From the NCBI GenBank assembly GCA_902525935.1, contig CABZJA010000004.1, positions 19,831-83,830 of the forward strand: DNA of 64,000 bases, given 5' to 3'. Position 1 is the first letter of the stretch; each line of letters starts with the position of its first letter. Made by a program: the position numbers and the translations under genes. Below are positions 5,777 through 61,753 of the stretch, piece by piece. The notes below the pieces were generated by a model that worked only from the letters and a program-made list of their open reading frames with translations, made no database searches and was not told the DNA's origin. Origin of the DNA: an uncultured Pelagibacteraceae bacterium (GTDB lineage Bacteria > Pseudomonadota > Alphaproteobacteria > Pelagibacterales > Pelagibacteraceae).

Positions 5777-5779
5777 TTT

Positions 5780-24785: not shown

Positions 24786-26075
24786 CTATTTTCCATCTAC
24801 AGCAACAATCGTTAAATCATCTTTTTGGATATGACCTGCGCCAAGAATGTCATCAATCATTATTTTAAGTCTGTCGTTGATCGCAGTTGATTGATATTTC
24901 TTAATATAATTTTCAAAACCTTCAGAGCCCAACATTTCTCCACTTGGGTTTTTTATTTCAGTAATTCCATCTGTAAAAATATACATTGAGCTATTTTCGA
25001 AACGAATAGTGTGTTCAGGATATTTTGTTTTAGGCATTATACCTAAAGGGGGACCAGCCTCAGAAAAATTACTAAATGTTCCATCAGCAGATAAAATTAA
25101 TGGAGGTTCATGACCTGCACTTGAAAGGAGTAACTCTTTTTTATTTGAGTCGTATATTCCAATTAACATTGTTACAAACATACCTCTTGAGATTGTTTCA
25201 CATATTTCATTATTAAGCTGAAACAATAGATCTGATGCAGAAAAATTGGTTTTGCTTAAACATCTATACAAACTAGAAGCTTTAGACATTAAGAGTGATG
25301 ATTTAATTCCTTTTCCAGATACATCTGCAACTCCAAATCCATATTTTCCATCTCCTAAATCAGAAAAATTATAAAAATCTCCAGAAACAACTTTTGCTGG
25401 TATATTTATTCCTGAAATCGGAAAATCTCTCTCTTTATTTTTAGATAATAAAGATTTTTGAATTTCTCCAACAATTTCTACTTCTTTTTGAATTTTATTT
25501 TTTTCTACCATTTCTTTTGCCATCTTTGCATTTCTAATTGCTAATGCTGCAGGAGCAGAAAGCGTTTCTAAAAGTTTTCTGTCATCTTCAATAAACAATT
25601 TATCTTCAGTTTTTTTATTTAAACAATGAATAACCCCAATACATTCATTTGCTGCAATCAAAGGTGAACATAAAACCGAATATGTCGTAAAATTTGTTTT
25701 ATTATCTAAGTCAAAATAAAACTCTGCTATTTCACGCACATCTTTTCTAACATTACCGACACGAATACACTTTCTTTGCTGAACAGCTTTACCCATAACA
25801 CCATCTTTTAAATCTAATTCATATTCATCTAAATAATCTTGATGAAGTGAAGCGATACATTCAAATTTTTTCTTTTGCTCATTTATAAGAAAAATGTTTG
25901 CAGCTTCCGCATTCAGTCTTGCAATAATTACTCTAAGTGCATTCATTAAAGTTTCATTTAAATCAAGAGAGAGAGCAAAGTCTTGATTCATTTTTGTGAC
26001 AAGCTCTAAATCAACATTAACTTGTTCAGCCTCTTTTTTAGGTTCGATCGGTTTTTTTGATTTAAATAGAAACAT
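24786..26075 (-). CDS. GAF-domain PP2C/SpoIIE (RsbU-like) Ser phosphatase
   Basis: N-terminal GAF (SVLCSPL, LNKK); PP2C motifs VSGDFY, ADVSGKG, FTDG, DDLT. Confidence 0.92.
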   Translation of the reverse strand: MFLFKSKKPIEPKKEAEQVNVDLELVTKMNQDFALSLDLNETLMNALRVIIARLNAEAANIFLINEQKKKFECIASLHQDYLDEYELDLKDGVMGKAVQQRKCIRVGNVRKDVREIAEFYFDLDNKTNFTTYSVLCSPLIAANECIGVIHCLNKKTEDKLFIEDDRKLLETLSAPAALAIRNAKMAKEMVEKNKIQKEVEIVGEIQKSLLSKNKERDFPISGINIPAKVVSGDFYNFSDLGDGKYGFGVADVSGKGIKSSLLMSKASSLYRCLSKTNFSASDLLFQLNNEICETISRGMFVTMLIGIYDSNKKELLLSSAGHEPPLILSADGTFSNFSEAGPPLGIMPKTKYPEHTIRFENSSMYIFTDGITEIKNPSGEMLGSEGFENYIKKYQSTAINDRLKIMIDDILGAGHIQKDDLTIVAVDGK

Positions 26076-26243
26076 TTATTTATCTAGCATTTTAAGCAAT
26101 TTTTGGTAAATCTTTCAACAATGGAGATTATAATTAATACACCTAATTTATACATTCACCTTCAGGATGCAGTACTTATAGTTCAGTATGTAATAAATGG
26201 ATTAATCCACATTTCATCAAACATTAAATTATAATCAGTTTCT

Positions 26244-27005
26244 GTGGATCTAATATTTGTAATTATTCTTGGAGGTCTATGGGGTAGTTTTGCAAATGTT
26301 TGTATTTATAGACTCCCTATAGGCAAAGGGGTTGTATCTGGAAGATCATTTTGTCCAAACTGTAAAAAATTAATTACTTGGAAAGATAATATTCCTATAA
26401 TTTCATTTCTATTTTTAAATGGCAAATGCAGAAGTTGTAAAAAAAAAATTTCATTTCAGTATTTAATAATTGAGGTAATTACAATTATTTATTTTTTAGT
26501 TGTATATTACTTATATGGAATCACTACAACAACTTTACTATTTTTAATTTTGGGATTATCTTTTATTATAATTTTCTTCATAGATCTAAAGCATTATATA
26601 ATTCCTAATGTATTAACTTTTTCTTTGATGATTATTGGTTTCATAAAATCTTTTGATCCAAATTTAAATCCAATTTTTCCAAATTTTATCAATTCTTTAA
26701 TTGGAGGAATTTTTGGTTATTTAATTATTTGGTCTATAATTTATTTTTACAAACAAATCAGAAAAAAAGAGGGGATGGGTTTAGGAGATGCAAAACTTTT
26801 ATCAGCAATTGGTTTTTGGTTTGGATGGATCTCAATACCATTTGTAATATTTCTATCATCTATAATTGCTTTGTTAAATGTTATGCCAAGTTTGTTGAAA
26901 AATTCAAAATCAATGTCCTCACAAATACCTTTTGGACCATACATAATAATTGGAACATTAGTTTATCTTTTTTTTGAAAATAGCCTTAAATCACTTCTAT
27001 TTTAA
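26244..27005 (+). CDS. pilD: Prepilin peptidase / N-methyltransferase
   Basis: GSFANVCIYRLP, CPNC...CRSC, FIDLKH, GMGLGDAKL, PFGPY. Confidence 0.95.
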   Translation: MDLIFVIILGGLWGSFANVCIYRLPIGKGVVSGRSFCPNCKKLITWKDNIPIISFLFLNGKCRSCKKKISFQYLIIEVITIIYFLVVYYLYGITTTTLLFLILGLSFIIIFFIDLKHYIIPNVLTFSLMIIGFIKSFDPNLNPIFPNFINSLIGGIFGYLIIWSIIYFYKQIRKKEGMGLGDAKLLSAIGFWFGWISIPFVIFLSSIIALLNVMPSLLKNSKSMSSQIPFGPYIIIGTLVYLFFENSLKSLLF

Positions 27006-27047
27006 AGAATTAAATCACAGACGGTACCTAGAACTATTTCGTTAAAA

Positions 27048-29630
27048 ATGTTTAAGTATTTAAATATGAGATATTTTTTAATATTTTTATTCTTAGTTAG
27101 TTATAATCAAATATTTTTAAATATAAGCAAAGCCGAAGATATAACGATTTCTTCTAATCAGTCTACTCAGATAGTAATGTCAAATAACGATACACTGACA
27201 GTTCAGAGTGGTGTCACGGTGAATACTAGTGCTGACGACTCTGTGGAGTTTGAAGGTCATAGTTTTTCTACAAGTGATACTGTAGTGACTAATGCCGGAA
27301 CAATCATTGGTACGGCTGATACACTTCAAGGCCAGAGTTCAACAAACTTTACTTTAAATAATACTGGAACAATAGAAGCAACACAGTCAAATTGTGGACG
27401 TGCACCTGCTGTCCACTTACACAGAGCTAATGGTACTGTGACAATTGTAAATAGTGGCACCATCACTTCTGGTTCTAGTGATACTATTAAAACTCACGAC
27501 TCAAGTATAACACTTTCAATTACTAACTCAGGAACTATTTCTGGTTGTCAAAGAGTTCTTAATATTGGACAAATGAATAGCGGAGTTCAAGCTACTTTAA
27601 ATAACTCAGGAACTATTTCTGGAACATCCAATGTGCTCTATATATATTCAGCTGGAACTGATGTGGGAATAGGATCTATTACTAATTCTGGAACCATTTC
27701 TGCAAGCAACGGTTATGTTACTGAAATTAATAATGTAAATGACGTTACCATCACCAATACAGGAACTATATCAGGAACAAGTGATGCAATAAAAGAAATT
27801 GGTAAAAATAGTTCTAATGGAAATGTAATAGTTAATAAGGGAACTATATCAAGTGGTAATAGTGACCACGATCTTGTGGTAGTTGCCTCAGATGGATTAC
27901 AATCGCTAACAAATGATCAAGGTGGAAATGATGCTTTAAAATTAGAAGGCTATCTTCCTGTAAATTATGTCTTCCTAGCAAACAGCACAACTGATTATGG
28001 AAAGCTAGCTGTTGATAGTCAAAATGGTGCAACTACTTTTAGTATTAGCACAGATTCTGCTTTGTCAGCAGGGACTTATACTAGTGTTATAACAGGAGTA
28101 TCATCTAGTAGATTTACAGCTGGTTCTACAGGCACAGTCACTGTAACAAATGGAAAGTTCAATTGGACACTTACAGAAACATCTTCAGGAAGCACTAATT
28201 GGAATTTAGTTGTTACAAATTTTGATAATGATTCTCCAACTTTATCATCTTCAAGTCCATCTGATAATGCAACAGAAGTTGCAACAGATGCTAATATAGT
28301 TTTAACTTTTAGTGAAGTAGTTGATGCTGAAAGTGGAAATATTACTATTAAAAAGACTTCGGATGATAGTACTATTGAAACAATTGATGTTACCGGAGCC
28401 AAAGTCAGTGGTAGTGGCTCAACAGCAATTACTATTAACCCAAGCACAGATTTAACAGCCGATATTGATTATTATATTTTAATAGATGCTAATGCTTTTG
28501 ATGATACTGCTGGAAATTCATATGCTGGTATATCAAGCACAACGGCTTTAAATTTTTCTACGAAACCTGGAGAAGTTTATAGTGAGACCGTAAAGACTCT
28601 TACAAAAAATCAAACCGTAGCTGCTATAAATTCTTTAAACCAGTCTTTAAATAGAATTTCAGGAAGAATGAATTATATAAGATCTACAAATAATAATTCC
28701 TCAAATCAAAACATAAGATTAGCAATGAACTTTGACAATCAACTATTAGCTCAACAAATAAATTCACTTTCAGCTAAACTAATTAAAAAAGAAAAAAAGA
28801 CTGAAAAATGGGGAGTTTGGAGTGAAGGTAGTATATCATTTGGTAGAATAGGGCAGCAAGATGGGAATTTAGGTCAAGATATCCATAGTGATGGAATTAC
28901 TTTTGGAATTGATAAGAAAATAAATGAAGATAAGACTATTGGTTTTGCAATCAATAAATCATGGCAAGAAACTGAGGTAGGTAGCAATGAAGCAAATATG
29001 GATGCTGCCACAATAAGTATTATGAATTACACAAGTTTTAAAATTGAAGACAAAAGATTTTTCGAAATGGTTGCTGGCATTGGAGAAATGGATATAGATT
29101 TAAGCAGGGATGTTACAAGTGGAAAAAATAAAGGAGATAGAAAAGGAAACCAACTTTTTGGAAGCTTCACTTATTTATTAGAACCTGATGTTGAAATTGT
29201 AGGTAGATATTTAAATTATTATTCTAGACTTGATTTAGGATTTACTCAACTAAAGGCATATACAGAGACAGGTGATGGAACAGCTGTTAGCTACAATAAA
29301 CAAAATGTTAAAAGTGCATCTCTATCTGCAGGTTTAAATTTAAGTAAAGTTATTGAGAGTAAAAAAGGTATATTTGAACCGTCATTTAAATTTGAACTAG
29401 GAAAAAATAAAACAATTAATTCATTATCAGAGGCTTATTATATTAATAATGCCTCTGAAATTTTTAGTAATGCTATAGGAGATCAAAATTCGGGGCATTT
29501 ATTGTTGAATTTAGGAATTGGGGCAAAACTCAACAATAATTTAACCATAAATGCATCATATGAACACTACAGAAGTAGCGATGATGCTTTTAATAATAAT
29601 TTTTCAATTTATTTAAGAAAACCTTTATAA
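27048..29630 (+). CDS. Autotransporter adhesin: beta-helical passenger, Ig-like (Big_5-type) domain, C-terminal beta-barrel
   Basis: Signal peptide; many N(S/T)GTI repeats; SSPSDNAT...LTFSE Ig-like domain; WGVWSEG...GIDKK barrel; start may be 27066. Confidence 0.88.
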   Translation: MFKYLNMRYFLIFLFLVSYNQIFLNISKAEDITISSNQSTQIVMSNNDTLTVQSGVTVNTSADDSVEFEGHSFSTSDTVVTNAGTIIGTADTLQGQSSTNFTLNNTGTIEATQSNCGRAPAVHLHRANGTVTIVNSGTITSGSSDTIKTHDSSITLSITNSGTISGCQRVLNIGQMNSGVQATLNNSGTISGTSNVLYIYSAGTDVGIGSITNSGTISASNGYVTEINNVNDVTITNTGTISGTSDAIKEIGKNSSNGNVIVNKGTISSGNSDHDLVVVASDGLQSLTNDQGGNDALKLEGYLPVNYVFLANSTTDYGKLAVDSQNGATTFSISTDSALSAGTYTSVITGVSSSRFTAGSTGTVTVTNGKFNWTLTETSSGSTNWNLVVTNFDNDSPTLSSSSPSDNATEVATDANIVLTFSEVVDAESGNITIKKTSDDSTIETIDVTGAKVSGSGSTAITINPSTDLTADIDYYILIDANAFDDTAGNSYAGISSTTALNFSTKPGEVYSETVKTLTKNQTVAAINSLNQSLNRISGRMNYIRSTNNNSSNQNIRLAMNFDNQLLAQQINSLSAKLIKKEKKTEKWGVWSEGSISFGRIGQQDGNLGQDIHSDGITFGIDKKINEDKTIGFAINKSWQETEVGSNEANMDAATISIMNYTSFKIEDKRFFEMVAGIGEMDIDLSRDVTSGKNKGDRKGNQLFGSFTYLLEPDVEIVGRYLNYYSRLDLGFTQLKAYTETGDGTAVSYNKQNVKSASLSAGLNLSKVIESKKGIFEPSFKFELGKNKTINSLSEAYYINNASEIFSNAIGDQNSGHLLLNLGIGAKLNNNLTINASYEHYRSSDDAFNNNFSIYLRKPL
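27524..27622 (+). repeat. Exact 21-bp direct repeat within autotransporter passenger
   Basis: TAACTCAGGAACTATTTCTGG at 27524-27544 and 27602-27622 (NSGTISG). Confidence 0.85.
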
Positions 29631-29638
29631 TTAAAATT

Positions 29639-30517
29639 ATGTTTAATAAAATAATTGAAGATATATCAAAAGTAATTGTAGGAAATGAAGAGAAGATTAA
29701 ATTAACTTTAGCTGCAATTATTACTCAGGGAAGCATTTTAATTGAAGATTATCCTGGCTCAGGAAAAACCACTTTTGCAAAAGCAATAACATCAAGCTTA
29801 GGGCTTAACTTTAAAAGAATTCAATTCACATCTGATTTATTACCCAGTGACGTTCTCGGATTTAATATTTTATCTGATGATAAGTTAAAATTTCAGAAAG
29901 GCCCCATTTTTACAAATATTGTTTTGGCAGATGAATTAAATAGGGGGAGTCCAAAAGCTCAAAGCGCATTCTTAGAAGCAATGGAAGAAAAAAATGTAAC
30001 TATAGATGGTGAAAGCTATAATTTACCAGAACCATTTTTTGTCATTGCAACTCAAAATCCTATGGATAACTCTGGAACAAGTTCTTTACCAGATTCACAA
30101 TTGGATCGTTTCATGATCTCTTACTCACTATCTGACCTAGGTCAAAACGAAAAAATTATAATGTTAAAAAAGAATATTACTTTTTCAAATTCTGTAAGTG
30201 AAACAATTAATTGGTCTCAAATTAATGATAAAAAAAATGAAATAACTGTAAAAGACGAAATCTATCAATATGTTGTTGAAATAGAACAAACAATCAAAGC
30301 TTTAGGACAAAATATCTATATTTCAGCAAGATGCATGAAGCAAATAATTGACTTAGCCAAAGGTTGGTCAATTATTCATGGGAAAGAGTATGTTTCCCAC
30401 CAAGATATAAAAGACACAATACCTTATATTTTAAGGCATAGAATAAAGTTTTTAAATCAAGGTGATAAACTTAGTTATGTTAATAAAGAAATCCTTGAAA
30501 AAATTAACATTGGATAA
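29639..30517 (+). CDS. MoxR-family AAA+ ATPase
   Basis: EDYPGSGKT, RIQFTSDLLPSD, LADELNR, ATQNP, QLDRF. Confidence 0.93.
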   Translation: MFNKIIEDISKVIVGNEEKIKLTLAAIITQGSILIEDYPGSGKTTFAKAITSSLGLNFKRIQFTSDLLPSDVLGFNILSDDKLKFQKGPIFTNIVLADELNRGSPKAQSAFLEAMEEKNVTIDGESYNLPEPFFVIATQNPMDNSGTSSLPDSQLDRFMISYSLSDLGQNEKIIMLKKNITFSNSVSETINWSQINDKKNEITVKDEIYQYVVEIEQTIKALGQNIYISARCMKQIIDLAKGWSIIHGKEYVSHQDIKDTIPYILRHRIKFLNQGDKLSYVNKEILEKINIG

Positions 30518-31431
30518 TGGAAGTCCAATCAAGAATTTTTAGCTTTAATTTCAAAAGTTTACTTAATCTTAAAAAAGATGCAAAAATTTATATTTATCCC
30601 AACCTTAATGGTTTAGGCTTAGGCTTATTTATTTTTTTTTGTTTTTTAATCTCAGTTTTTTATGAAAATAATTCAGGACTATTAGTTTCAATAGTAATTT
30701 TCTTTGTTTTTTTTATATCAATATTTATTTCACACCAAAATATAAGTAAACTCGATTTTATATGCAAAGAAGAGTATTTAGTTGAAGCAGAAACTGTAAA
30801 TTCAATTAGTTTTCAAATCTTAAATTCATCAAAAGAAAAAAAAATTAACATTGATATAGAATACAATAAAAAAAAAGTTGGTAATTATAATTTTAACGAC
30901 AGAATTAATTTTTTTAAAATAGAGTATAAAAGTAAGTTTAGAGGTAAATCTAATTTTAATCCAATAACACTTAAATCGATTTATCCTTTTGGAGTGATGA
31001 GAACAAAAGTTATTTTTAATCCAAAGAGTGAAATAATAATTTATCCAAAAAAAATTCTTCCAAGCGACGAATTATTAAGAGAATTTAAAATAATTAATAT
31101 TATTAATGCAGATGAATTTGATGGTATTGATGAATTTAAAAATGGAGATAGTTTTTCTAAAATTGCATGGAAAAAATCGACAATTAGCGACAAAAGATAT
31201 GTAAAAACTTTCAGTGATACTGAAAAATTGTCAAATTTAATTTTAGATTTAGATAAATATCCAAATATTGAATTTGAAAAATTACTAAATTACTCATCTT
31301 ATATAGTTAATTATTGTTATGAAAAAAAATTGAATTTGAAAATAAAGCATAAAGAACACGAGTTATACCTAAACGATAACAATCAATCTTTTAATCGAAT
31401 ATTAAAATATTTTGCTAATGTTAAAAATTAA
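30517..31431 (+). CDS. DUF58-family protein
   Basis: SIYPFG, EFDGIDEFKNGDSFSKIAWKKS; position between MoxR and TgpA. Confidence 0.8.
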   Translation: MEVQSRIFSFNFKSLLNLKKDAKIYIYPNLNGLGLGLFIFFCFLISVFYENNSGLLVSIVIFFVFFISIFISHQNISKLDFICKEEYLVEAETVNSISFQILNSSKEKKINIDIEYNKKKVGNYNFNDRINFFKIEYKSKFRGKSNFNPITLKSIYPFGVMRTKVIFNPKSEIIIYPKKILPSDELLREFKIINIINADEFDGIDEFKNGDSFSKIAWKKSTISDKRYVKTFSDTEKLSNLILDLDKYPNIEFEKLLNYSSYIVNYCYEKKLNLKIKHKEHELYLNDNNQSFNRILKYFANVKN

Positions 31432-33313
31432 GAATTATAATTTATCAATATTTACTTTTCTGCTTTTACTTTTTTGTACTTATTCACTATCAGCAGATTT
31501 AACATTAAATAATAAATTGTTTTGGTTTATTGTATTTATTTTTAATATTCTGTTTTTCCAAATCAATATTAAATTAAAAAGTTTAATCTTAGGTATTGTT
31601 GCTGTAGGTGCAACTTATATCCAGCTTATTTTTAATCAATATGTATTTTCTGAAGAGTTTTTTCTAAACTGCTTAGCAATACTATTGATAATGAAGTTTT
31701 CAGAATTAAAAAGTAAAGATAATAAACTTTCATTTAACTTGATTTGTTTAATAATATCAGTTGCAAGTCTTATTAAAGGCCAAGATATACTAAGCACATT
31801 ATTAAGTTTTACTATCGTAATACTGGTCATAATAAATATGTATTTAATTCAGCAAAAGGAATTGCTAGATTTTAATATTAAAAATCTATTTAAATATTTA
31901 GGTTTTGGATTAAGTATTTTTCCTTTTATAATTATATTTTATTTAGTTTTCCCACGTGCAGAAATAAATTTTAGATTATTTAATCCAGCATCAAGCTCGC
32001 TAGGTATTCCAGATAGCATTAATCTTGGATCTTTCAGTGAGTTTTCAAATTCAGATGAGGATGTTTTTACCCTTATAAATAACAATTTTAATAAGGAAGA
32101 GCTCTATTTTAGAGTGAAAATTTTCGATTATATGGAAGAAGACAAATCCTGGAGACCGTCTTCAAGTTACTATTTATTTGATAAATATAAATCATCTTTT
32201 AAAATTAAAGATGGCAGAGACCTAAATCAAACCTACCAGATAATTTTAGAACCTTATAAAAAGAAATGGATTCCAAGTTTAAAAAACTCAAAATCAATCT
32301 CTGACAATATTGAAATATCAGAAGATAATTTTAATCAAATTTATGTTAGCAGAGATTTAATTGATCGAAAAAAACAAATAAGTTTTAAAAGATATAAAAC
32401 TAATTACTATTTAGGAGGGGATCTAAAAGACTATTATACAAAAACTCCATCCAAAATATCAAATAGACTTCAAAATTGGGTTTTAAATAACAATACTTCA
32501 ACACCGACAGAATTTTTAGATAAGGTATATAAAAAATTTTCTGATGGATCTTACTATTATAATTTAAGTCCTCGAAATTTTTCTGGAAATAATTATGAAA
32601 ACTTTTTCTTTGATCTTAAAGAAGGGTATTGCGAATATTATGCCGGAACTTTTGTTCTTCTTGCAAGACTTGCAAATATACCAAGTAGAATTGTAACAGG
32701 TTATTATGGAGGTGAATTAAATGATGTGGGAGATTTTTACAAATTTAAACAAAAAGATACTCATGCATGGGCAGAAGTTTGGTTAGATGATAAAGGTTGG
32801 ATAAGAATAGATCCGACCAGAGCAGTTCCTGATATAAATGTCAGAAACACACTTAATAATATTTTCTCAAATAAACAATTTGCATCTAACAGTTTATTTT
32901 CATCTAATTTTTTTAAAAAAATGAGTTATTACTTTAATTACGCTGATTTTGTATGGACTCAACATTTATTATCATATGATGATAATGAACGAAAAAACTT
33001 TATTAAAGAATTGTTAAATCTTAACTTTTCTAAAATATATATTTGGATATTTATACCTTTATTTTTATTTTTAATATTTAAATTATTATTAAGTTTAAAT
33101 AGTAAAAATATTATGAGATTTTATTTATATTTAATTTTATTTGGAAAAAGAAAAAAATTTAAGATATTAAAATCTGATACAATTCAACAGATTTACTTAA
33201 AACTACCAAAGATACAAAAAAATAAATATTATAAATTTTTTAAAGCATTTGAGATTAATAAGTACTCAAGCGCAAATATTAGTTTTGTTAAGTCTTTAAA
33301 ATCAATTTTTTAG
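31418..33313 (+). CDS. TgpA-like membrane transglutaminase (DUF3488 + transglutaminase core)
   Basis: N-terminal TMs, FYLVFPR, GYCEYYA, HAWAEV, IDPT (Cys-His-Asp triad). Confidence 0.9.
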   Translation: MLKIKNYNLSIFTFLLLLFCTYSLSADLTLNNKLFWFIVFIFNILFFQINIKLKSLILGIVAVGATYIQLIFNQYVFSEEFFLNCLAILLIMKFSELKSKDNKLSFNLICLIISVASLIKGQDILSTLLSFTIVILVIINMYLIQQKELLDFNIKNLFKYLGFGLSIFPFIIIFYLVFPRAEINFRLFNPASSSLGIPDSINLGSFSEFSNSDEDVFTLINNNFNKEELYFRVKIFDYMEEDKSWRPSSSYYLFDKYKSSFKIKDGRDLNQTYQIILEPYKKKWIPSLKNSKSISDNIEISEDNFNQIYVSRDLIDRKKQISFKRYKTNYYLGGDLKDYYTKTPSKISNRLQNWVLNNNTSTPTEFLDKVYKKFSDGSYYYNLSPRNFSGNNYENFFFDLKEGYCEYYAGTFVLLARLANIPSRIVTGYYGGELNDVGDFYKFKQKDTHAWAEVWLDDKGWIRIDPTRAVPDINVRNTLNNIFSNKQFASNSLFSSNFFKKMSYYFNYADFVWTQHLLSYDDNERKNFIKELLNLNFSKIYIWIFIPLFLFLIFKLLLSLNSKNIMRFYLYLILFGKRKKFKILKSDTIQQIYLKLPKIQKNKYYKFFKAFEINKYSSANISFVKSLKSIF

Positions 33314-33448
33314 TAAAAGACTTCTCTCTGTTCTGAGTTTATTATTTTCTTTGATTAATTGAATAATCATTTCTTTCATTATTCTATTCTCCTCAACTGC
33401 TCTTCCAGTGATCTCAGCCAATCTCTCATTTTCATTAAAGATTTATAA

Positions 33449-38112: not shown

Positions 38113-38171
38113 AAATTCATTATACTTTACTTTTGCTAATAATTTATCTCTATGAACCATTTTAGACATAT

Positions 38172-41966: not shown

Positions 41967-42093
41967 TCAATATTGATACTTTAAAAACTAACTAATTTTT
42001 ACTTTTTTATTTTAAAAAAACTCATTATGAACTAAAGTCATTTTTTATTCTAGTAAAAGTTGAGTATATAGTTAAAATTCGATTTATAAATTT

Positions 42094-44444: not shown

Positions 44445-44880
44445 GATTCTATTTATTATAAGTCTTTTGACTTTACCATCTATATCCTACTCGGATAGTC
44501 ACGATCAAAAACAAGAAGTATTGGATAAAGTAAAAGAGATTGCTAAGGAGATAGAGGAGGAGGAAGAGGTTCCTCTTAATGATCCATTTGCAGGTAATGA
44601 GGGTACCGGTTCTATGTCAGGTAATATTCCAGCGGATGAACAAGAAAATGAATTAAGTTTGTATAATTTTAAATTAGCAGGTCTTATATCGGGTAAAGAT
44701 TATAGTTATATTTCAATCGTAAACTCTGGTGGGGAAGTGTTAACTCTTAGCTTAGGTCAATTTTTAGGAAAAATACAATTAGTCGATCTAAGACTAACAG
44801 AGGCTATATTTAAAAAAGAAGATGGTAAATATATGATTATAGATTTTAATAATCAGGTAAGAGAGGCAGATGAATATTAA
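44431..44880 (+). CDS. PilP-like protein
   Basis: Signal peptide, NDPF motif, FKLAGLI beta domain; position between pilO and pilQ. Confidence 0.6.
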   Translation: MNFFKILFIISLLTLPSISYSDSHDQKQEVLDKVKEIAKEIEEEEEVPLNDPFAGNEGTGSMSGNIPADEQENELSLYNFKLAGLISGKDYSYISIVNSGGEVLTLSLGQFLGKIQLVDLRLTEAIFKKEDGKYMIIDFNNQVREADEY

Positions 44881-46423: not shown

Positions 46424-48171
46424 TGATTAACATAAGTAGAGAGTCTGAGATTAATTTGATTAATATCTTAATAGACCAAGATATTATTTCAGGGAAAGAT
46501 TTAGCTGAAATAAAAAAAGTTTCTAGTGATGGAAACAAATCACAATTAGATGCGGTATTTGAATTAAATCTAACAGATGAACAAAAAATTTTAGATTTAT
46601 TAGTTCACGATCAGTCCCTAGATGTTGTTGATTTATCAATAATTGATGTGACTGAAGAATTAAAGGCTGTTCTTCCTTCAAATTATATAAATATGAATTT
46701 TATAGCACCATTTAAAATTGAGGGAAAAGTACTACATATTGCAATTTCTGATATTTCAAAATTAAGTTTGATGAGAAATTTAAGAACAATTACAAAAATG
46801 GATATTGAGTTACATGCAGCCAAAGTTTCAGATATTTCAAATTTTGTTGACAAGCTCTTGGCTGATGGTGAAAAAACAATATCTGACATTAGACAAACAA
46901 ATGCTGAAAAAACCAAAACCTTTGATTATGATGTTGACGAACAGGCTGAAGTTTTAGATAGCCAACCCGAAGAAGATATTGAAGCAATTGAAAACGAGTC
47001 TGAAGTTATTAAATTTAGTACAGCCGTTGTTGCTGATGCTATTAAATCAGGTGTATCTGATATTCACATTGAACCATACAGATTTTCATCAAGAGTAAGA
47101 TATAGATTAGACGGTATCCTTACAGAGCAAGAGCATTTTAAAAAATTTTTACACTCAAATTATGGTGCAGTTGTTACAAGATTTAAAATTATGGGAAAAT
47201 TGGACATTGCGGAAAGAAGACTTCCACAAGATGGAGCTATACCGTTTAAAATTGATGGAAAGGTAGTAGACTTACGATTATCAATTCTTCCTACTGCAAC
47301 GAATGAAAGAATTGTAATGAGGGTTCTAAATAAAGATGCAGGCGATATAAGTCTAGAGCAATTAAATTTTGAAGAAACAGATTTAAAAAATTTAAGAAAA
47401 GCAATTCATGGAACTCAAGGTTTGGTTTTGGTTACTGGTCCAACAGGTTCTGGTAAAACAACAACACTATATAGTATTTTAAAAGAGGTATCGAAACCTC
47501 ACTTAAACATATTAACTGCAGAAGATCCTGTTGAGTATGAATTAGATGGCGTTGGTCAAGTTCAGATCAAAGATGACATTGGTTTGAATTTTTCAACAGC
47601 CCTAAGGTCTTTTTTAAGGCAAGATCCAGAAATAATTCTTGTTGGTGAGATGAGGGATAAAGAAACAGTAGATATAGGTCTTAAAGCAGCATTAACAGGC
47701 CACTTGGTATTTAGCACTTTACACACTAATGATGCACCTAGTACCATTACAAGGTTGCAAAATATGGGTACACCAGATTATTTAATAAGTGCTGCTGTGA
47801 GTTTAGTATTAGCACAAAGGCTAGCTAGAAAAACATGCCCAGATTGTAGAGTGCCTGATGATGATATTACTCCGAAAGCACTTGCTGATTTTGGTTTTAC
47901 AGTGGAACAAGCATCTAGAGCTAAAGTTCAAAAAGGGAAAGGATGTCCAAAATGTAAAGATAGTGGTTATAAAGGTAGAATGGGAATTTATGAAATATTA
48001 AATGTTACAAAACCAATAAAAGAAGCAATATTAAGAAAAGCAACCACACCAGAATTAAAAGAAATTGCATCTAATGAAGGCTTTAGGACTATGCAGGACA
48101 TGGGAAGAGAATTAATTCTCACTGGCGATTTAAATTTTAGAGAATTTGATAGAGTGCTATCAGGAGAATAG
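46423..48171 (+). CDS. pilB: Type IV pilus extension ATPase
   Basis: SDIHIEP, RLPQDG, GPTGSGKT, LRQDP, CPDC...CPKC. Confidence 0.95.
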   Translation: MINISRESEINLINILIDQDIISGKDLAEIKKVSSDGNKSQLDAVFELNLTDEQKILDLLVHDQSLDVVDLSIIDVTEELKAVLPSNYINMNFIAPFKIEGKVLHIAISDISKLSLMRNLRTITKMDIELHAAKVSDISNFVDKLLADGEKTISDIRQTNAEKTKTFDYDVDEQAEVLDSQPEEDIEAIENESEVIKFSTAVVADAIKSGVSDIHIEPYRFSSRVRYRLDGILTEQEHFKKFLHSNYGAVVTRFKIMGKLDIAERRLPQDGAIPFKIDGKVVDLRLSILPTATNERIVMRVLNKDAGDISLEQLNFEETDLKNLRKAIHGTQGLVLVTGPTGSGKTTTLYSILKEVSKPHLNILTAEDPVEYELDGVGQVQIKDDIGLNFSTALRSFLRQDPEIILVGEMRDKETVDIGLKAALTGHLVFSTLHTNDAPSTITRLQNMGTPDYLISAAVSLVLAQRLARKTCPDCRVPDDDITPKALADFGFTVEQASRAKVQKGKGCPKCKDSGYKGRMGIYEILNVTKPIKEAILRKATTPELKEIASNEGFRTMQDMGRELILTGDLNFREFDRVLSGE

Positions 48172-48173
48172 TA

Positions 48174-49415
48174 ATGTCATCTGAAACATTCACATATAAA
48201 GGCATTTCAGCAGGAAAATATATCGAAGGTGAAATAGAAGCAATCAATCAAGAAGAGGCATCATATAAATTAAAAGAACAAAAAATAATAATTACAAACT
48301 TAATTAAAGTAAAAAAAAAGAAAGCTACTAAAGAAAAAGGCAAAAAAAGCAGTTTTTCTTTTGGTAAGAAAAAAGTTACTCCACAAGATGTAATGCTTTT
48401 TTCTAAGCAATTTGCAACGATGGTAAAAGCAGGTTTGCCAATATTAAATGTTTTAACAATGCTTAGAGACCAAATAGAACACCCAACTATGAAAGAGATA
48501 ATAGAAGATGTTAGAAAAAGTCTTGAAGGTGGAATAACTCTGTCTAAATGTTTTGAAAAATACCCAAAAATATTTGATAATATTTATATAAACTTAATTA
48601 AAGCTGGTGAAGCTAGTGGTAAATTAGATGATTTCTTACTTAAATTGGTAGTTTCATTAGAAAAAAGAGAAAAAGTAAAAAAAAAAATTAAAAGCGCCTT
48701 AACGTATCCTGTTGTTATGTTTACAGTTGCAATAACAGTAATGGTTTTTATGTTAATTAAAGTTGTACCGGTTTTTGCTGAGATGTATGAAGGTATGGGT
48801 GTTCCCCTACCAACCCCAACTGCAGTGATTATGACGGCAAGTAATTTTATGAGAGGATCTGGAGGTCTCACATTAGCTATTGTTAGTATAATTTTATTTG
48901 CAATATTTAAATACACAACAACTAAAATTCCAACTATTAGATATAAGTGGCATCAAAGAGTTCTCAAGATGCCAGTTTTTGGAGATATGATATTAAAATC
49001 ATTGATAGCTAGAGTTGCATTAATAATGGGTAATCTTAGTGCTGCAGGTGTTAATCTTTTGGAAAGTATAGAAATTGCAAAACAAGTAAGTAATAATGAT
49101 GTTGTTACTCAAGCTTTAGAAAATGTAAAAAAAGGTGTTTTTTCAGGAGACACTTTAACAAAACTATTTTTAAAAGAACCAGTTTTTCCTGCAACCTTTA
49201 GCCAGTTAATTTCTGTAGGAGAGCAGACGGGAAATTTAGATGAAATGTTTACATCTGTATCAGCTTATTATGAAGAAGAGTTTGATACAGCTGTAGATAA
49301 TATGTCGAGTTTAATTGAACCGATTATGATTGTATTTATGGGTACGATGATCGGTGGTTTGATGATAGCTATGTATTCACCAATCTTTAATGTTGGTGCA
49401 ATTATTGGAAGTTAA
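48174..49415 (+). CDS. pilC: Type IV pilus platform protein (GspF family)
   Basis: AGEASGKL, SALTYP, GEQTGNL, LIEPIM. Confidence 0.95.
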   Translation: MSSETFTYKGISAGKYIEGEIEAINQEEASYKLKEQKIIITNLIKVKKKKATKEKGKKSSFSFGKKKVTPQDVMLFSKQFATMVKAGLPILNVLTMLRDQIEHPTMKEIIEDVRKSLEGGITLSKCFEKYPKIFDNIYINLIKAGEASGKLDDFLLKLVVSLEKREKVKKKIKSALTYPVVMFTVAITVMVFMLIKVVPVFAEMYEGMGVPLPTPTAVIMTASNFMRGSGGLTLAIVSIILFAIFKYTTTKIPTIRYKWHQRVLKMPVFGDMILKSLIARVALIMGNLSAAGVNLLESIEIAKQVSNNDVVTQALENVKKGVFSGDTLTKLFLKEPVFPATFSQLISVGEQTGNLDEMFTSVSAYYEEEFDTAVDNMSSLIEPIMIVFMGTMIGGLMIAMYSPIFNVGAIIGS

Positions 49416-49840
49416 TAATCTATTTTTTTAGACAAAATTAAATGGTTAATCCAAGGCTTTTCACCTTCTTTAAATACCACTGCATCCATTATTTGTTGAA
49501 TAAAAAAAGTTCCAAGTCCACCTGGTTTAATATCATCAATTTTTCTGTGTCGAATTTTATCTTCTTCAACCGGTCTACCTTTGTCAAAAAAACCAATTTC
49601 TAAATTTCCATTTGCTAAAGAGATTTTAATCTCCATTTTATCCTCAGTATCTTCTCCTTGATAAGCATGTTTAACAATGTTCTGTGCTGCCTCTGCAATT
49701 GCTAATACCAATTCATCTTTTAAATCTTGATCTATATTTACTTTTTCAAAAACTTCTCTTGAAAAACTTCTTACGTCCTTTAAGCTTGATGAACTTACAA
49801 CAAAATCTCTCTGTTCTGATATTTGTGCAAGATTATTCAT
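49412..49840 (-). CDS. RsbW/SpoIIAB-like anti-sigma Ser kinase (HATPase_c_2)
   Basis: LAIAEAAQNIVKHAY, DKG, GGLGTFFIQQIMD. Confidence 0.9.
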   Translation of the reverse strand: MNNLAQISEQRDFVVSSSSLKDVRSFSREVFEKVNIDQDLKDELVLAIAEAAQNIVKHAYQGEDTEDKMEIKISLANGNLEIGFFDKGRPVEEDKIRHRKIDDIKPGGLGTFFIQQIMDAVVFKEGEKPWINHLILSKKIDY

Positions 49841-49843
49841 TAT

Positions 49844-50143
49844 TTATCCTAAGTTTAAAATTTGCTCCAGTTTTGCCATCATAATAACTTTCAAAACTGA
49901 TTTGCTTATATCTTTTAAAATGACTTTTGTTCCAAGTTCAGTTGCTTTTTGATGACTTTCAATTAGTACAGATATTCCAGACGAGTCCATGTATTGAACT
50001 TCTTTTAGATTTAGATGTACCTCTTTTTTTGCCTCAATAAGAGGCATTATAATTTCTTTTGCTTTTTCTGTTACATCCATATCAATTTCACCATCAAGGT
50101 GAACAATTGATATTCCGTTTTCTTCTGTAACTTTGTATGACAT
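49844..50143 (-). CDS. STAS anti-anti-sigma factor (RsbV/SpoIIAA-like)
   Basis: LDGEID, VQYMDSSGISVL with phosphorylatable Ser. Confidence 0.92.
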   Translation of the reverse strand: MSYKVTEENGISIVHLDGEIDMDVTEKAKEIIMPLIEAKKEVHLNLKEVQYMDSSGISVLIESHQKATELGTKVILKDISKSVLKVIMMAKLEQILNLG

Positions 50144-50287
50144 AAATATTAATATTTATTAAATTTCCCTGTGAAATCAACAAAAATGACCCATTTTGAA
50201 TATATATTATGTATGTAGATATTGACTTTTAAAAGATATAATTATTATGTATATACATATTTTTTATTTAAAATAGGATCATAAATT

Positions 50288-50758
50288 ATGAAAAAAAATA
50301 ATAAAGGTTTTACACTTATAGAATTATTAGTTGTTGTAGCCATCATCGGTATATTAGCTGCCGTTGGAGTTGTTGCATACTCTGGTTACACAAAGGGGGC
50401 AAAAAAATCCGCTGTTAAATCAAATCACGCAGCCATTCTTAAATATGTTGCAGCAGAACTTAAAAAATGTGAGATCGGTGAAACAGGTGTTATGAAAAAA
50501 GGTGGACAAAACAAATTAACTTGTAGTGACAGAAAAACAGCTAACAAAGTTGCTGATGGTGCTTTTGATGCATTGTCAACAGAGTTCAAAAATCCATACA
50601 ATACTGGTGCCTCTGCAATAGTTAAATCTACTCTAGGAGCATGTAATTCTACAACTGAAGGACAGACTAGCGTAGCCAATACAAATTCATTAGTTACAAT
50701 AAAGTCTTGCCCAGTTGATGGAGAAGCTCTTTTAGAGGGAACTGTCGACATAGAATAG
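50288..50758 (+). CDS. pilA: Type IVa pilin, probable major pilin
   Basis: KG|FTLIELLVVVAIIGILAA; own intergenic region and SD (TAGGA). Confidence 0.85.
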   Translation: MKKNNKGFTLIELLVVVAIIGILAAVGVVAYSGYTKGAKKSAVKSNHAAILKYVAAELKKCEIGETGVMKKGGQNKLTCSDRKTANKVADGAFDALSTEFKNPYNTGASAIVKSTLGACNSTTEGQTSVANTNSLVTIKSCPVDGEALLEGTVDIE

Positions 50759-50776
50759 CAAAAACAGAATATTTAA

Positions 50777-51196
50777 ATGACAACCAGAAGCTCAGGCTTT
50801 ACTTTAATTGAGCTTTTGGTTGTTGTTGCAATATTAGGAATAATAGCAGCAATAGGTATCGTTAGTTATAATGGCTACGTTTCATCTGCAAAAAGAAAAT
50901 CAGCAGAGAACATAATTTTACAAATATCTCTTGCGCAAGCAGAATATTTTTCTGATCGCGATGTCTATTACTATACTACTGGTTGTGATTTATCCGTAGA
51001 AAATGGTTCAAATGAAATTGAAAAAAACTTACTAGGGGAAGCTAATGTTATTTCTTCTAAAGATGAAGGTGGTTACACATTTTGTATAACAGGCGTTGCA
51101 ACTCAATATCAGATAAGAGCTAAGGAAGATAAAAAAGGTACACCTTGTGAACTTGAGTATAATGAAAAAATGAAATGGACTAGAAAGAACTGCTAG
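50777..51196 (+). CDS. PilE/ComP-like minor pilin
   Basis: SG|FTLIELLVV, AQAEYF, C-terminal Cys pair. Confidence 0.8.
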   Translation: MTTRSSGFTLIELLVVVAILGIIAAIGIVSYNGYVSSAKRKSAENIILQISLAQAEYFSDRDVYYYTTGCDLSVENGSNEIEKNLLGEANVISSKDEGGYTFCITGVATQYQIRAKEDKKGTPCELEYNEKMKWTRKNC

Positions 51197-51204
51197 TTTC
51201 AAAA

Positions 51205-51450
51205 ATGGAATTTCAGAAATATATAGAAAATATCAAATTAATTTTTTCAGGTAATTTATCAAAAAACTTTAAGATATATGCAACTGCAAGTTTAGCTTGG
51301 ATCATATTTATTGGATATCTAACTTGGTGGAATGGATTAAAAAGTCCAATGATAGATAAAAGCTTTAGATGGGATGAGTGGTTTTGGTTTGGGATTGTTC
51401 CAGCCCTTTCTCCTTATTTATTTTATTTTATTTGGAGAAAAAAAGAATAA
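51205..51450 (+). CDS. Small Trp-rich two-TM hypothetical protein
   Basis: 81 aa, two hydrophobic segments, FRWDEWFWFG. Confidence 0.7.
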   Translation: MEFQKYIENIKLIFSGNLSKNFKIYATASLAWIIFIGYLTWWNGLKSPMIDKSFRWDEWFWFGIVPALSPYLFYFIWRKKE

Positions 51451-51517
51451 CTAACCTATTTTGAACATCTACTTTCTATCATGAACTTTAAAATAAATAT
51501 AACCTCAAGAGGATGAA

Positions 51518-53668
51518 GTGGAGAGCATAGATCTGGAAACAGTAAAATCATTTGTTGATACTCTTTGGGTTATAGATTGTGCAATACTTGTTTTCATAAT
51601 GCAGGCAGGCTTTATGTGTATGGAGACAGGATTGTCTAGACATAAAAATAGTATTAACGTCGCTTTAAAAAATGCAGCTGATTTTGGTCTTGCAGTTGTA
51701 ATTTTTTGGCTATTCGGCTTTGGTTTGATGTTTGGAAAGAGTTTTAACGGCTATTTTGGAACTGATTTGTTCTTTTTTAAAACTGATCAAGCTGAATACA
51801 TGACATATTTTGTGTTTCAAGCAATGTTTGTTGCAACTGCAGCTACAATTGTTTCAGGTGCTGTTGCTGAAAGAATGAAGTTTAATGGTTATTTAATCAT
51901 AACAATAATAGCTACAGGAATTATATATCCAATTGTTGGTCATTGGGCATGGTCATCAAGTTATTTAAATAATATAGATGCTACAAGACAACTACTTGCT
52001 ATAACTGGACAGGTAAAAACTACGGGATGGCTTACAGATATTGGATTTGTTGATTTTGCTGGAAGCACTATTGTTCACTCAGTTGGTGGCTGGATTGCTT
52101 TATCAGCAGTTTTAATTTTAGGTCCTAGAATTGGAAAATATTCAGATGCAAATAAGGGAAAGTTTACTGGTTCAAGTTTTCCGCTTGCAGTTTTGGGAAC
52201 CTTAATTTTATGGTTTGGTTGGTTTGGTTTTAACGGTGGAAGTAATGGAGCTATGGATGATGCAGTTCCTTTAATTTTAATAAATACATTTCTAGCTGCA
52301 TCTTTTGGATTATTAACAGGTCTTGGGATTTCATTTGCATTATTTAAAAAACCAGATCCTTATTATGTAATTCTTGGACCACTTGCAGGTTTAGTTGCAA
52401 TTACAGCAGGATGTAATTCAATGACATCAGTAACCTCAATATTTGTTGGAATTATTGGAGCAGTGGTTGCAATTTTTGTAAATGAACTTTTAAATAAATT
52501 CGAAATAGATGATGTTGTTGGTGCCGTGCCTGTTCATTTGGCAGCAGGGATTTGGGGAACTATTGCAGTAGGTTTATTTAGTAATCTTGAAATTTTAGGA
52601 ACTGGATTATCAAGATTAGAACAAATTAAAGCACAGTTTATTGGAATTGTTTCAATTGGTATTTTTTCATTTTTTAGTTCATATATTTTATTAAAAATTT
52701 TAAATTATTTTTATCCTTTGAGAGTAAGTCCTTTGCATGAAGAATTAGGGCTTAATATTGCAGAACACAATGCTACTTCTGTTGAACATGATTTAATTAC
52801 AATTTTAGATAAACAATCTGAGTCTGGCGATTTAACAATTAGAGGACCACAAGATCCATTTACTGCAGGTGGTGTAATTGGACTTTATTACAATAGATTG
52901 ATGAGTAAACTAGAAACTAGCGAAGCTGAAAAGAAAGTATGGAGAGACAGAATTTCAAATGAAGTAAAACTTGCTGTTAAAGTTCAAGAAAATTTTCTAC
53001 CAAAGAGGAATTTAGAAAATTACCCTGTGCACGGAATTAATATTGCAGCTAGGGAAGTTTCAGGAGATTTCTTTAGCTTTTATCCTCACAATGATAGTGT
53101 TTACTTTATTATTGCAGATGTTGCGGGTAAAGGAATTCATGCTGGCATGGTAATGGCAAAAGCTTCAACTTTATTTGAGATAATGTCTAGAGATCAAGTA
53201 GATCCAGATGAAATGATGTTTCATATGAATAATGATCTGTTTTTAACTAAAACTGGAGGAATGTTTGTTACTAGTATATTGGGAGAATATAATATGAGAA
53301 CTGACGAATTAAGATGGGTAAACGGAGGTCATCAGCCAGCTATAATCAGATCATCATCAGGAAATTATAGACAATTTGCGAGCAATTCTCCACCTATGGG
53401 AGTAATACTTCAAAAAGACAAATCAGTTTACACAACTCATAAAGTTAAGCTTGAAAATAACAAGTTTTATGCATTTACTGACGGTTTATCAGAAAGCTTA
53501 AATAGCGAAGGCGAAGAAATAGGAATAGATGGCTCATTAAAAATTATAGAACAAAATTTTAACTCTGATACTAGTAAGCAATTATCTGATATATCAAACT
53601 CTGTAATTAAATCTGCTGGTGATAATAAACTAAGTGATGACTTAACACTAATATCAATAGGCAATTAA
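51518..53668 (+). CDS. Ammonium transporter (Amt) fused to PP2C/SpoIIE phosphatase
   Basis: Amt motifs FQAMF, DFAGSTIVH, WFGWFGFNGGS, DDVVGAVPVH; C-terminal VSGDFF, ADVAGKG, FTDG, DDLT; single uninterrupted ORF. Confidence 0.93.
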   Translation: MESIDLETVKSFVDTLWVIDCAILVFIMQAGFMCMETGLSRHKNSINVALKNAADFGLAVVIFWLFGFGLMFGKSFNGYFGTDLFFFKTDQAEYMTYFVFQAMFVATAATIVSGAVAERMKFNGYLIITIIATGIIYPIVGHWAWSSSYLNNIDATRQLLAITGQVKTTGWLTDIGFVDFAGSTIVHSVGGWIALSAVLILGPRIGKYSDANKGKFTGSSFPLAVLGTLILWFGWFGFNGGSNGAMDDAVPLILINTFLAASFGLLTGLGISFALFKKPDPYYVILGPLAGLVAITAGCNSMTSVTSIFVGIIGAVVAIFVNELLNKFEIDDVVGAVPVHLAAGIWGTIAVGLFSNLEILGTGLSRLEQIKAQFIGIVSIGIFSFFSSYILLKILNYFYPLRVSPLHEELGLNIAEHNATSVEHDLITILDKQSESGDLTIRGPQDPFTAGGVIGLYYNRLMSKLETSEAEKKVWRDRISNEVKLAVKVQENFLPKRNLENYPVHGINIAAREVSGDFFSFYPHNDSVYFIIADVAGKGIHAGMVMAKASTLFEIMSRDQVDPDEMMFHMNNDLFLTKTGGMFVTSILGEYNMRTDELRWVNGGHQPAIIRSSSGNYRQFASNSPPMGVILQKDKSVYTTHKVKLENNKFYAFTDGLSESLNSEGEEIGIDGSLKIIEQNFNSDTSKQLSDISNSVIKSAGDNKLSDDLTLISIGN

Positions 53669-61752: not shown

Positions 61753-61753
61753 T

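Follow-up and report, generated by a model that had tools for sequence, protein, structure and literature searches.

An RsbU/V/W-type switch module built into the type IVa pilus islands of Pelagibacteraceae

The locus described here raises the question of what a phospho-switch of the RsbU/V/W type acts upon in a draft genome that shows RpoD and RpoH as its only sigma factors. The sequence analysed is a 64-kb stretch of contig CABZJA010000004.1, referred to below as the window, from the draft genome of an uncultured Pelagibacteraceae (SAR11) bacterium; this genome (G000) is 1.06 Mb in length, 77% complete and has a guanine-plus-cytosine (GC) content of 29%. Two PP2C phosphatases, a serine kinase and a STAS protein are encoded in this window within a complete type IVa pilus island, flanked by rodA and dadA according to Pfam and NCBIfam searches. 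An earlier note on this DNA had read the four genes as a sigma-less RsbU/V/W-type circuit tied to the pilus. That reading is backed by synteny in all 48 related genomes that carry the kinase, by the ammonium-receptor ligand set of one phosphatase, and by a phosphoserine detected in vivo on the STAS protein of strain HTCC1062.

The four switch genes

The genes in question are as follows.

24786..26075, minus strand: GAF-PP2C (RsbU-like) phosphatase of 429 amino acids with a cytoplasmic input (Pfam GAF at 37-180, SpoIIE at 242-427)
49412..49840, minus strand: RsbW/SpoIIAB-type serine kinase of 142 amino acids (HATPase_c_2, E 5.6e-20), tail-to-tail with pilC
49844..50143, minus strand: STAS protein of 99 amino acids with phospho-acceptor Ser54 (Pfam STAS), the likely output of the switch
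51518..53668, plus strand: Amt-linker-PP2C of 716 amino acids, a predicted sensor phosphatase of the ammonium-receptor type (Pfam)

Judged by the features of its kinase, STAS and PP2C proteins, this set would constitute an RsbU/V/W-type module. The genes lie where the earlier note had placed them, and their catalytic and phospho-acceptor motifs are intact, as it had also claimed. Both PP2C proteins exceed the Pfam SpoIIE cut-off and retain the metal-binding aspartates (D233/D251/D369/D419-420 in the GAF-PP2C, D517/D534/D655/D707-708 in the Amt-PP2C). The kinase has intact N and G boxes (E50, N54, D86-x-G88 and G107-G108-x-G110), which are invariant or nearly so in 22 relatives; its family profile finds Bacillus subtilis RsbW (6m36) as best PDB match, and the protein scores below all curated RsbW/SpoIIAB cut-offs. 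The STAS motif reads D53-S54-S55-G56, with DSSG invariant in 27 of 27 aligned STAS proteins, and the predicted model (pLDDT 93) superimposes on RsbV with a TM score of 0.94. The 3' end of the kinase gene overlaps the pilC stop by 4 nucleotides, and spacers of 168 and 144 nucleotides separate the GAF-PP2C from the divergent pilD (26244) and the STAS gene from the divergent pilin (50288), respectively. A domain census of G000 returned two SpoIIE proteins, both in the island, one STAS protein and three Amt proteins, two of which are plain.

The earlier note held that the 64 kb contain no sigma factor. This is correct; rpoH nonetheless lies on the same contig, 19.3 kb to the left of the window (C4:2-547), where it is truncated by the contig end.

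Linkage to pilus islands and exchange of inputs

We surveyed 150 Pelagibacteraceae genomes with a completeness of at least 85%, a sample that includes two unpublished genomes (G045 and G124), both of which enter the counts only as non-matches for switch and pilus. The kinase was found in 48 of these genomes, PilC in 58 and SpoIIE in 50. In every one of the 48 kinase genomes, pilC is on the same contig as the kinase gene and at most 21.3 kb away (within 2 kb in 25, within 12 kb in 47), and a stand-alone STAS protein and a SpoIIE protein are present as well, the latter within 35 kb of pilC in 46. None of the 92 PilC-negative genomes has the kinase. The linkage between kinase and pilus exceeds chance, and the synteny check proposed in the earlier note is passed in all 48 cases. 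SpoIIE genes are somewhat more dispersed: 72 of 88 copies lie within 35 kb of pilC, 6 lie farther away on the pilC contig, and 10 are on other contigs. The two genomes with SpoIIE and no kinase match are fragmented, and their SpoIIE genes adjoin pilus-island genes. Among the best 80 of 168 kinase loci, all belong to Pelagibacteraceae, pilC is at most two genes from the kinase in 80 of 80, STAS directly precedes the kinase in 77, and an Amt-PP2C lies upstream in 60 of the 66 that have at least 4 kb of sequence there; some of these loci are the same DNA as surveyed family genomes, and kin are not independent. Gene order was compared in loci from 35 of the 48 kinase genomes and from all 10 PilC genomes that are kinase-negative, and by inspection pil genes and the switch are the only genes shared across the fetched islands. 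In G069, a stand-alone PP2C of 288 amino acids is flanked by two pilin genes, far away from the main island (L138:8827-9700).

Of the 48 kinase genomes, 46 have two sigma-70 region-2 matches, as do switch-less genomes; G051 has three and the fragmented G142 one. The cognate alternative sigma factor that marks the sigmaB and sigmaF circuits was therefore not found.

The type IVa pilus set of the window is complete, comprising PilD, a PilY1-like protein, PilX/W/V/FimT, PilT, PilMN, PilO, PilP, PilQ, PilB, PilC and two pilins, arranged as follows.

26244..27005, plus strand: prepilin peptidase PilD (Pfam A24_N_bact and Peptidase_A24), divergent from the GAF-PP2C
27048..33313, plus strand: variable cargo slot with an autotransporter, a MoxR ATPase, a DUF58-like protein and a TgpA transglutaminase (Pfam)
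33449..41966, minus strand: pilT-fimT-pilV-pilW-pilX-hypothetical-pilY1-like operon, for retraction ATPase, minor pilins and tip adhesin (TIGR01420, N_methyl, PilX_N)
42094..49415, plus strand: pilMN-pilO-pilP-pilQ-pilB-pilC assembly operon (Pfam and NCBIfam)
50288..51196, plus strand: major pilin (156 amino acids) and second pilin (139 amino acids), with N_methyl motifs
51205..51450, plus strand: pilus-associated membrane protein of 81 amino acids, present in switch-less pilus loci too

PilT and PilQ both score above their NCBIfam cut-offs (for pilT, TIGR01420). PilP is called from position and homology only, and the PilY1-like label reflects size, position and preprint usage for such loci, without a family match. 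The N-domain of PilB aligns as an MshEN fold without the cyclic di-GMP (c-di-GMP) motif. PilM and PilN are fused (42094-43806), and relatives of the fusion carry acidic or low-complexity N-terminal extensions, up to 850 amino acids in total. The major pilin stands beside STAS as pilA (SAR11_0054) does in the published locus order. The Amt-PP2C is downstream of the pilins, as the earlier note had it, and not directly so, since the 81-amino-acid open reading frame (51205-51450) intervenes. Genes of the cargo-slot type occur in some related islands and are missing from others.

A quick tree of PilB from the fetched loci divides the islands into lineages A (the window type), B, C and D. Lineages A, B and C carry the switch in differing arrangements, and the clades of the kinase and the main STAS protein track the pilus lineage; the second STAS protein found in four B genomes clusters with C. 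Lineage D branches with A and is without the switch (eight intact loci, one frameshifted throughout and one fragment), for which loss is a simpler reading than the alternatives on this unrooted tree. The lineage-B STAS protein has a 70-residue acidic tail that ends in a conserved basic motif (L021:4633-5166, L023:4853-5356, L030:1234-1746) and may be a docking signal; its gene is co-oriented with pilD and divergent from that of a zinc-ribbon protein, which we take from its domain build to be ZitP-like. Two lineage-C kinases with altered G2 and N boxes (L035:10049-10471, L037:10317-10721) may be weak or inactive.

The inputs are modular and swappable. With phosphatase types assigned from frame length and checked by Pfam and BLAST on fetched loci, CHASE2-PP2C is the commonest type in the 48 kinase genomes (31), ahead of GAF-PP2C (21), Amt-PP2C (19) and receiver-PP2C (6). 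Only 15 of the 48, all in lineage A, combine GAF and Amt inputs, and the pairing of ammonium with a GAF ligand, suggested by the earlier note, is not supported as a general design. The CHASE2-PP2C types are accompanied by FecR and outer-membrane genes. In genus g8, a receiver-PP2C is found beside a 1,021-amino-acid probable hybrid kinase (a receiver-like match), a lone receiver and a DUF3047 protein (L021:17044-18660 onward; L160, L162, L164, L165), a set that is probably a phosphorelay input.

Against the PDB, the window Amt matches the receptors Sd-Amt1 (E 4e-119) and Ks-Amt5 best, and transporters score far lower. The N1/N2 ligands Q29, E36, N52, D55, T110 and S113 align with Q22, E29, N45, D48, T104 and S107 of Sd-Amt1, the pore-narrowing asparagine is kept (N300), and the linker is similar to that of Sd-Amt1 up to residue 481. 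The two plain Amts of G000 lack this ligand set. The published receptor signature demands 54-60 residues before a threonine; the window Amt has 53, and this one-residue gap makes it miss the strict pattern, the first half of which matches in 12 of 12 Amt-PP2C proteins tested. By these residues the window Amt would be of the ammonium-receptor type, with a predicted ammonium-dependent output, and the ammonium sensor proposed among the inputs in the earlier note keeps a candidate that holds the receptor ligand set. A second Amt-PP2C type of 745 amino acids is directly preceded by a gene for a secreted HMA-like (CxxC) protein of 109-120 amino acids (L001:12324-14904, L004:11664-14259, L054-L059), which suggests a metal-linked partner; a P-II-like identity for the 109-amino-acid form was rejected because it is HMA-like in the ESM Atlas. 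A 108-amino-acid gene falls in an unnamed, possibly lipoprotein, family of the same atlas.

The window GAF domain resembles those of phosphodiesterases and PtsP. We rejected c-di-GMP and cAMP as output or GAF ligand: GGDEF proteins occur in 5 of 150 genomes and class III cyclases in 2 of 150, and in each case 0 of 48 kinase genomes, class I cyclases not having been searched. Neither P-II nor GGDEF was found in G000, at its 77% completeness.

Phosphorylation and nutrient response in HTCC1062

In the model strain HTCC1062, supplement rows of a 2025 phosphoproteome list phosphorylated Ser54 (pSer54) on both STAS proteins (PMC13198564). For SAR11_0056, with which the window STAS protein shares the 18-residue stretch of the phosphopeptide, the site probability is 99.6 with 1199 spectra on the peptide, and the pSer54 ratio drops to 0.15 in carbon-limited and 0.62 in sulfur-limited cells and reaches 2.4 at 8 C (PMC13198564). 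From this condition-dependent phosphorylation, the switch is active in HTCC1062. The conditions listed exclude nitrogen variation. The same source, in its available portions, predicts RsbW alone as a Ser/Thr kinase and reports no protein phosphatase (PMC13198564). The co-occurrence in 48 of 48 genomes and the in vivo phosphorylation of the ortholog are in keeping with a kinase and phosphatases that would act on this STAS protein.

Nitrogen limitation is covered by a separate study that compares N-limited with replete stationary cells, the direction of its ratios being read from the PilP entry of its Table 1 (PMC3870248). Among the matches listed there, no pilus or switch gene, pilA included, changes significantly at the mRNA level; the protein ratios are 0.73 for PilA, 0.78 for PilB, 0.65 for PilT, 0.67 for PilMN, 0.68 for PilO, 0.98 for PilQ and 1.58 for PilP, and, for the switch, 0.61 for RsbW, 0.54 for RsbU, 0.37 for the STAS protein SAR11_0055, and 0.95 and 0.88 for Amt (PMC3870248). 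Induction of the pilus under nitrogen limitation, as for the foraging that the earlier note gave as an example, is thus not supported: pilA mRNA is flat, PilA, PilB and PilT protein fall, and only PilP rises. The drop of the STAS protein at constant mRNA could be a shift to the phosphorylated peptide under nitrogen limitation, which would fit ammonium switching the phosphatase on.

Pili have been proposed as a means to take up DNA in nitrogen-poor water, with the role of the SAR11 pilus described as unclear (PMC12789548, in its available portions). ComEC and DprA were found in none of five pilus-bearing genomes, four of them 99% complete, with controls found in 10 and 11 of 14; classical transformation is therefore unlikely. 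With pilin not raised and these proteins not found, the notion of DNA foraging under nitrogen limitation, also from the earlier note, loses its footing. Periplasmic use of captured DNA, adhesion and particle contact are possible roles. Metatranscriptome contigs from two runs of one study span the junction of the kinase and STAS genes as well as the pilins, and show few differences there; such contigs carry no information on strand or expression level, and only small shares were present in 11 of 13 runs.

Candidate targets of the output and known systems

The nearest relatives of the SAR11 kinase point to an envelope ATPase as the kind of target. A kinase profile search of 250 Alphaproteobacteria matched 27 non-SAR11 genomes, from which 20 loci were taken. 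The ten best matches (E at most 1.2e-24) all lie in the order kinase-STAS-mlaE-mlaF-mlaD-auxiliary lipoprotein, with a PP2C directly ahead in nine and a contig that begins at the kinase in the tenth, and with no pil gene in the fetched stretches; the ten weaker matches have no Mla operon. A phylum-wide sample of 300 added 13 genomes, 12 of which were fetched, and five of these are Mla-linked likewise. In a FastTree phylogeny of 132 columns, the Mla-linked kinases group with SAR11 kinases against the ten weaker matches (SH-like support 93, with composition warnings), and the window GAF-PP2C is 42% identical over 405 amino acids to the GAF-PP2C of a Mla-linked operon. None of 151 family genomes yielded MlaE, and the SAR11 switch therefore needs another target. 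The STAS protein of the Mla-linked kin stands in MlaB's place beside the ATPase, and this, together with the missing MlaE, is by analogy the main ground for supposing that the SAR11 STAS protein gates a pilus motor. At the surface by which STAS would face that ATPase, a Thr52Glu phosphomimic weakens MlaB-MlaF binding (PMC7367683, in its available portions), and STAS is the output in the SypA, RbaV and HmpV systems (PMC8256260, likewise).

The Mla-linked operon itself (GAF-PP2C, kinase, STAS, mlaE, mlaF, mlaD, lipoprotein) is found in L199-L206, L217-L221 and L223 (e.g. L201:5885-11313), with PP2C and kinase fused in two. In the gammaproteobacterial family f196 (L228:5039-10300, L229:6209-10376, L230:1600-8279), related kinase-STAS pairs precede ubiD and lie, in one genome each, behind pilD-coaE, behind mlaE-mlaD and beside type II secretion pseudopilins. 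A search for STAS fusions that would name a target gave 46 matches among 363 candidates scored, mostly STAS-STAS or STAS-kinase, and none with a listed pilus Pfam domain. The kinase profile run against a protein collection returned close relatives only among the 120 matches listed, and is uninformative on origin.

We consider it quite probable that the pilus is, at one level or another, under the control of the switch. More specifically, and with a confidence a little short of even, we propose that a sigma-less phospho-switch is inherited with the pilus island and that its STAS output gates the pilus after translation, at PilB, PilT or PilC, in response to nutrient and envelope cues. The kinase, as its family and its standing as sole predicted Ser/Thr kinase in HTCC1062 suggest, would phosphorylate Ser54 of STAS, and each PP2C would dephosphorylate STAS once its sensor is engaged. 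The inputs would be ammonium in the Amt N1/N2 pocket and the GAF ligand here; in relatives, a receiver or a CHASE2 domain, the latter with FecR and outer-membrane partners, would take their place. If the Amt-PP2C behaves like Sd-Amt1, ammonium binding would activate the phosphatase, and the signal may be the presence of ammonium, not starvation. Unphosphorylated STAS would then bind the motor and phospho-STAS would release it, as the phosphomimic does in MlaB-MlaF. A fuller version, in which a Mla-type switch was re-aimed at the pilus, with STAS docking on the ATPase to start and stop extension or retraction and plug-in sensors (ammonium receptor, GAF, CHASE2, phosphorelay) replacing P-II and c-di-GMP control, strikes us as rather unlikely.

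Several observations weigh against post-translational gating. PilA protein falls to 0.76 under carbon limitation and 0.56 under sulfur limitation (PMC13198564, supplement rows). Ten PilC-positive genomes have neither kinase nor PP2C, and eight of their loci are intact, seven with PilT seen in the stretch; the motor therefore works without the switch. Residues conserved only in switch-bearing lineages are not in excess over a control contrast (9 against 11 in PilB, 8 against 5 in PilC, 8 against 8 in PilT). Genes that share a mobile island can also be inherited together with no regulatory tie, and related genomes do not count as independent cases. Finally, the pilin is preceded by a palindrome of operator-like appearance, which leaves room for a transcriptional route.

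50189..50201, no strand: palindromic operator-like site of 13 bp, consensus RCCCAWWWTGGRY, 99 nucleotides before the pilin start
42020..42032, no strand: weaker copy between the divergent pilT and pilMN (matrix score 13.4 in a scan of its own genome), which misses the stricter fixed pattern

A transcriptional output would have a DNA-binding protein on RCCCAWWWTGGRY control the island, with STAS or the kinase binding or modifying that factor; the candidate is a tandem Crp-like winged-helix family, members of which adjoin several islands. The fixed pattern has a single match among 290 G000 spacers, the one before the pilin, and occurs in 12 of the 18 lineage-A STAS/pilA spacers that formed the training set. 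Outside that set, lineage A has matches in 22 of its 137 other spacers, lineage B in 9 of 120 and lineage C in 3 of 37, and the 49 spacers of switch-less D have none; shuffles give at most 0.2 per class. Divergent spacers contain a match in 24 of 143 cases and tandem ones in 22 of 149, against none in the 20 convergent spacers, and the matches mostly lie 44-66 nucleotides ahead of a start. The pattern marks promoters of pilus islands and cargo genes in switch-bearing lineages (L001-L178 spacers), winged-helix genes in A, B and C loci among them. Against this, the pattern was drawn by eye from the same spacers, and switch-less genomes contain a few exact matches too, at about the control counts. 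The winged-helix family (about 330 amino acids, L001:8001-9005, with single-domain forms in islands and only weak Pfam matches) was rejected as a dedicated output, since 124 of 150 genomes have it, among them switch-less ones, which makes it near-core, and no member was found in G000. Flat pilA mRNA under nitrogen limitation also counts against transcription, as do PilB (1.13) and PilT (0.93), which stay level as pSer54 changes (PMC13198564, supplement rows). We regard this route as unlikely. Canonical switching, in which RpoD or RpoH would have the kinase as its anti-sigma factor, freed by dephosphorylated STAS, would accord with RsbW and RsbV as the closest solved structures, with rpoH on the same contig, and with the 3' half of the pilA site, which resembles the RpoH -10 element. 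Chlamydial RsbW acts on sigma-66 (PMC8256260, in its available portions). A regulator of a core sigma factor, however, should not be confined to pilus carriers, as this kinase is in 48 of 48 genomes, and its nearest kin sit in Mla operons with no sigma gene among recurring neighbours. Further, mean identity within lineage A is 63% for the kinase against 79% for STAS, and kinases are only 29-42% identical between lineages, a low conservation that is unlike a binder of a conserved sigma factor. An RpoH promoter before pilA was rejected because the site has no conserved -35; groES, dnaK, clpB and grpE escaped motif searches of G000, which left no basis for a proper RpoH model, and a sigma-70 consensus scan was uninformative (13 sites against 11.2 in shuffles). 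An anti-sigma role is accordingly improbable in our estimation.

Two further explanations keep the module and change its target. The kinase might phosphorylate PilT directly, with STAS as inhibitor, at Thr286 (before the AIRNLIRE-type helix) or at Ser52. Both residues are phosphorylated in HTCC1062 (PMC13198564, supplement rows) and both match the window PilT (40950-41966); among 27 switch-bearing PilT proteins, position 286 holds Thr in 26 and Ser in the remaining one, and in 7 of 7 switch-less ones it holds Asn, and Ser52 is kept in 11 of 11 lineage-A proteins. Yet with 1014 sites on 555 proteins in that phosphoproteome, a single site is weak evidence, and pThr286 stands at 1.19 under carbon limitation against 0.15 for pSer54 (PMC13198564). 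Lineage contrasts of this sort are no commoner than control contrasts, and neither context resembles DSSG. An exchange of Thr and Asn is, moreover, an ordinary one at a helix cap, and we consider direct phosphorylation of PilT very improbable. Alternatively, the switch may ride with the island and regulate another target, for which the MoxR-DUF58-TgpA module, an envelope transporter and general metabolism are examples. The 6 of 88 PP2Cs that lie on the pilC contig more than 35 kb away, the working pilus of the switch-less lineage, and a lipid transporter as the ancestral type of target all lean this way. No cargo gene is common to all fetched islands, however, MlaE was not found in any of the 151 family genomes, and the switch was never found without pilC, which makes a target outside the pilus distinctly unlikely.

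Elsewhere in the window, a two-piece (permuted) transfer-messenger RNA (1182-1492) adjoins a very AT-rich island (2460-8658, GC 0.21) with sulfatase, glycerophosphotransferase, nucleotidyltransferase, glutamine amidotransferase and PEP-utilising genes, which we take from this gene set to be of the capsule phosphoramidate type. At 60925-62527, an inverse-autotransporter beta-domain gene is followed by one for an unannotated secreted protein of 257 amino acids.

The module supplies the missing phosphatases and a substrate, and renders questions about the role of the SAR11 pilus, RsbW and the Amt-phosphatase testable. Should STAS gate the motor directly, this would be such a gate on a type IV pilus and a link from ammonium to behaviour in the ocean's commonest bacterium; a streamlined cell would control a costly appendage without transcription, and STAS outputs that lack a target in Nostoc, Vibrio and Rhodobacter would gain one.

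Among known systems, RsbU/RsbP-RsbV-RsbW-sigmaB and SpoIIE-SpoIIAA-SpoIIAB-sigmaF of B. subtilis have the same PP2Cs, GHKL kinase and phospho-serine STAS, with several phosphatases per STAS. The SAR11 module differs from them in having no alternative sigma factor, in being confined to a pilus island and in missing the curated cut-offs. In HmpU-HmpV-HmpW of Nostoc punctiforme, SypE/SypA of Vibrio fischeri, RbaV/W/Y of Rhodobacter and BtrU/V/W of Bordetella, the output is, or may be, the STAS protein; type IV pilus motility is affected by Hmp, and a secretion machine by Btr (PMC6495340 and PMC8256260, in their available portions). Unlike these, the SAR11 genes are built into pilus operons, have swappable inputs and belong to a streamlined host. 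The Mla-linked operons and Escherichia coli MlaB-MlaF, which represent the nearest kin of the SAR11 kinase, STAS and GAF-PP2C, likewise place STAS beside an envelope ATPase with no sigma factor, whereas the SAR11 genomes searched have no MlaE and the SAR11 parts are dispersed through the pilus island; phospho-control of MlaB itself is only proposed (PMC7367683, in its available portions). On the input side, Sd-Amt1 is an Amt-HAMP-GGDEF protein and Ks-Amt5 an Amt-histidine kinase, and the window Amt shares the N1/N2 ligands and pore asparagine, has a linker similar to that of Sd-Amt1, and differs in its PP2C output.

In SAR11 itself, the parts of the circuit have been published separately. HTCC1062 genes are annotated as rsbW, rsbU and STAS in supplement rows (PMC3870248), and an antagonist and RsbW are listed as pilus-locus genes in a preprint, undiscussed in the text as available (bioRxiv 10.64898/2026.10.07.757358). 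Among the open texts covered, subscription papers being outside the scope, we found no paper in which the genes are joined as a pilus-bound circuit, nor one on the Mla-linked operon; figures and tables of the preprint may show the linkage. Amt-GI5, compared here together with SAR11_0049 and SAR11_0050, is a 716-amino-acid Amt-phosphatase of the same build as that of the window; it was proposed in 2025 as an ammonium sensor for which no partner was found (PMC11796062, in its available portions). In the window, by contrast, STAS and kinase lie 1.4 kb from the Amt-PP2C, and the assembled module is a pilus-bound, sigma-less partner switch.

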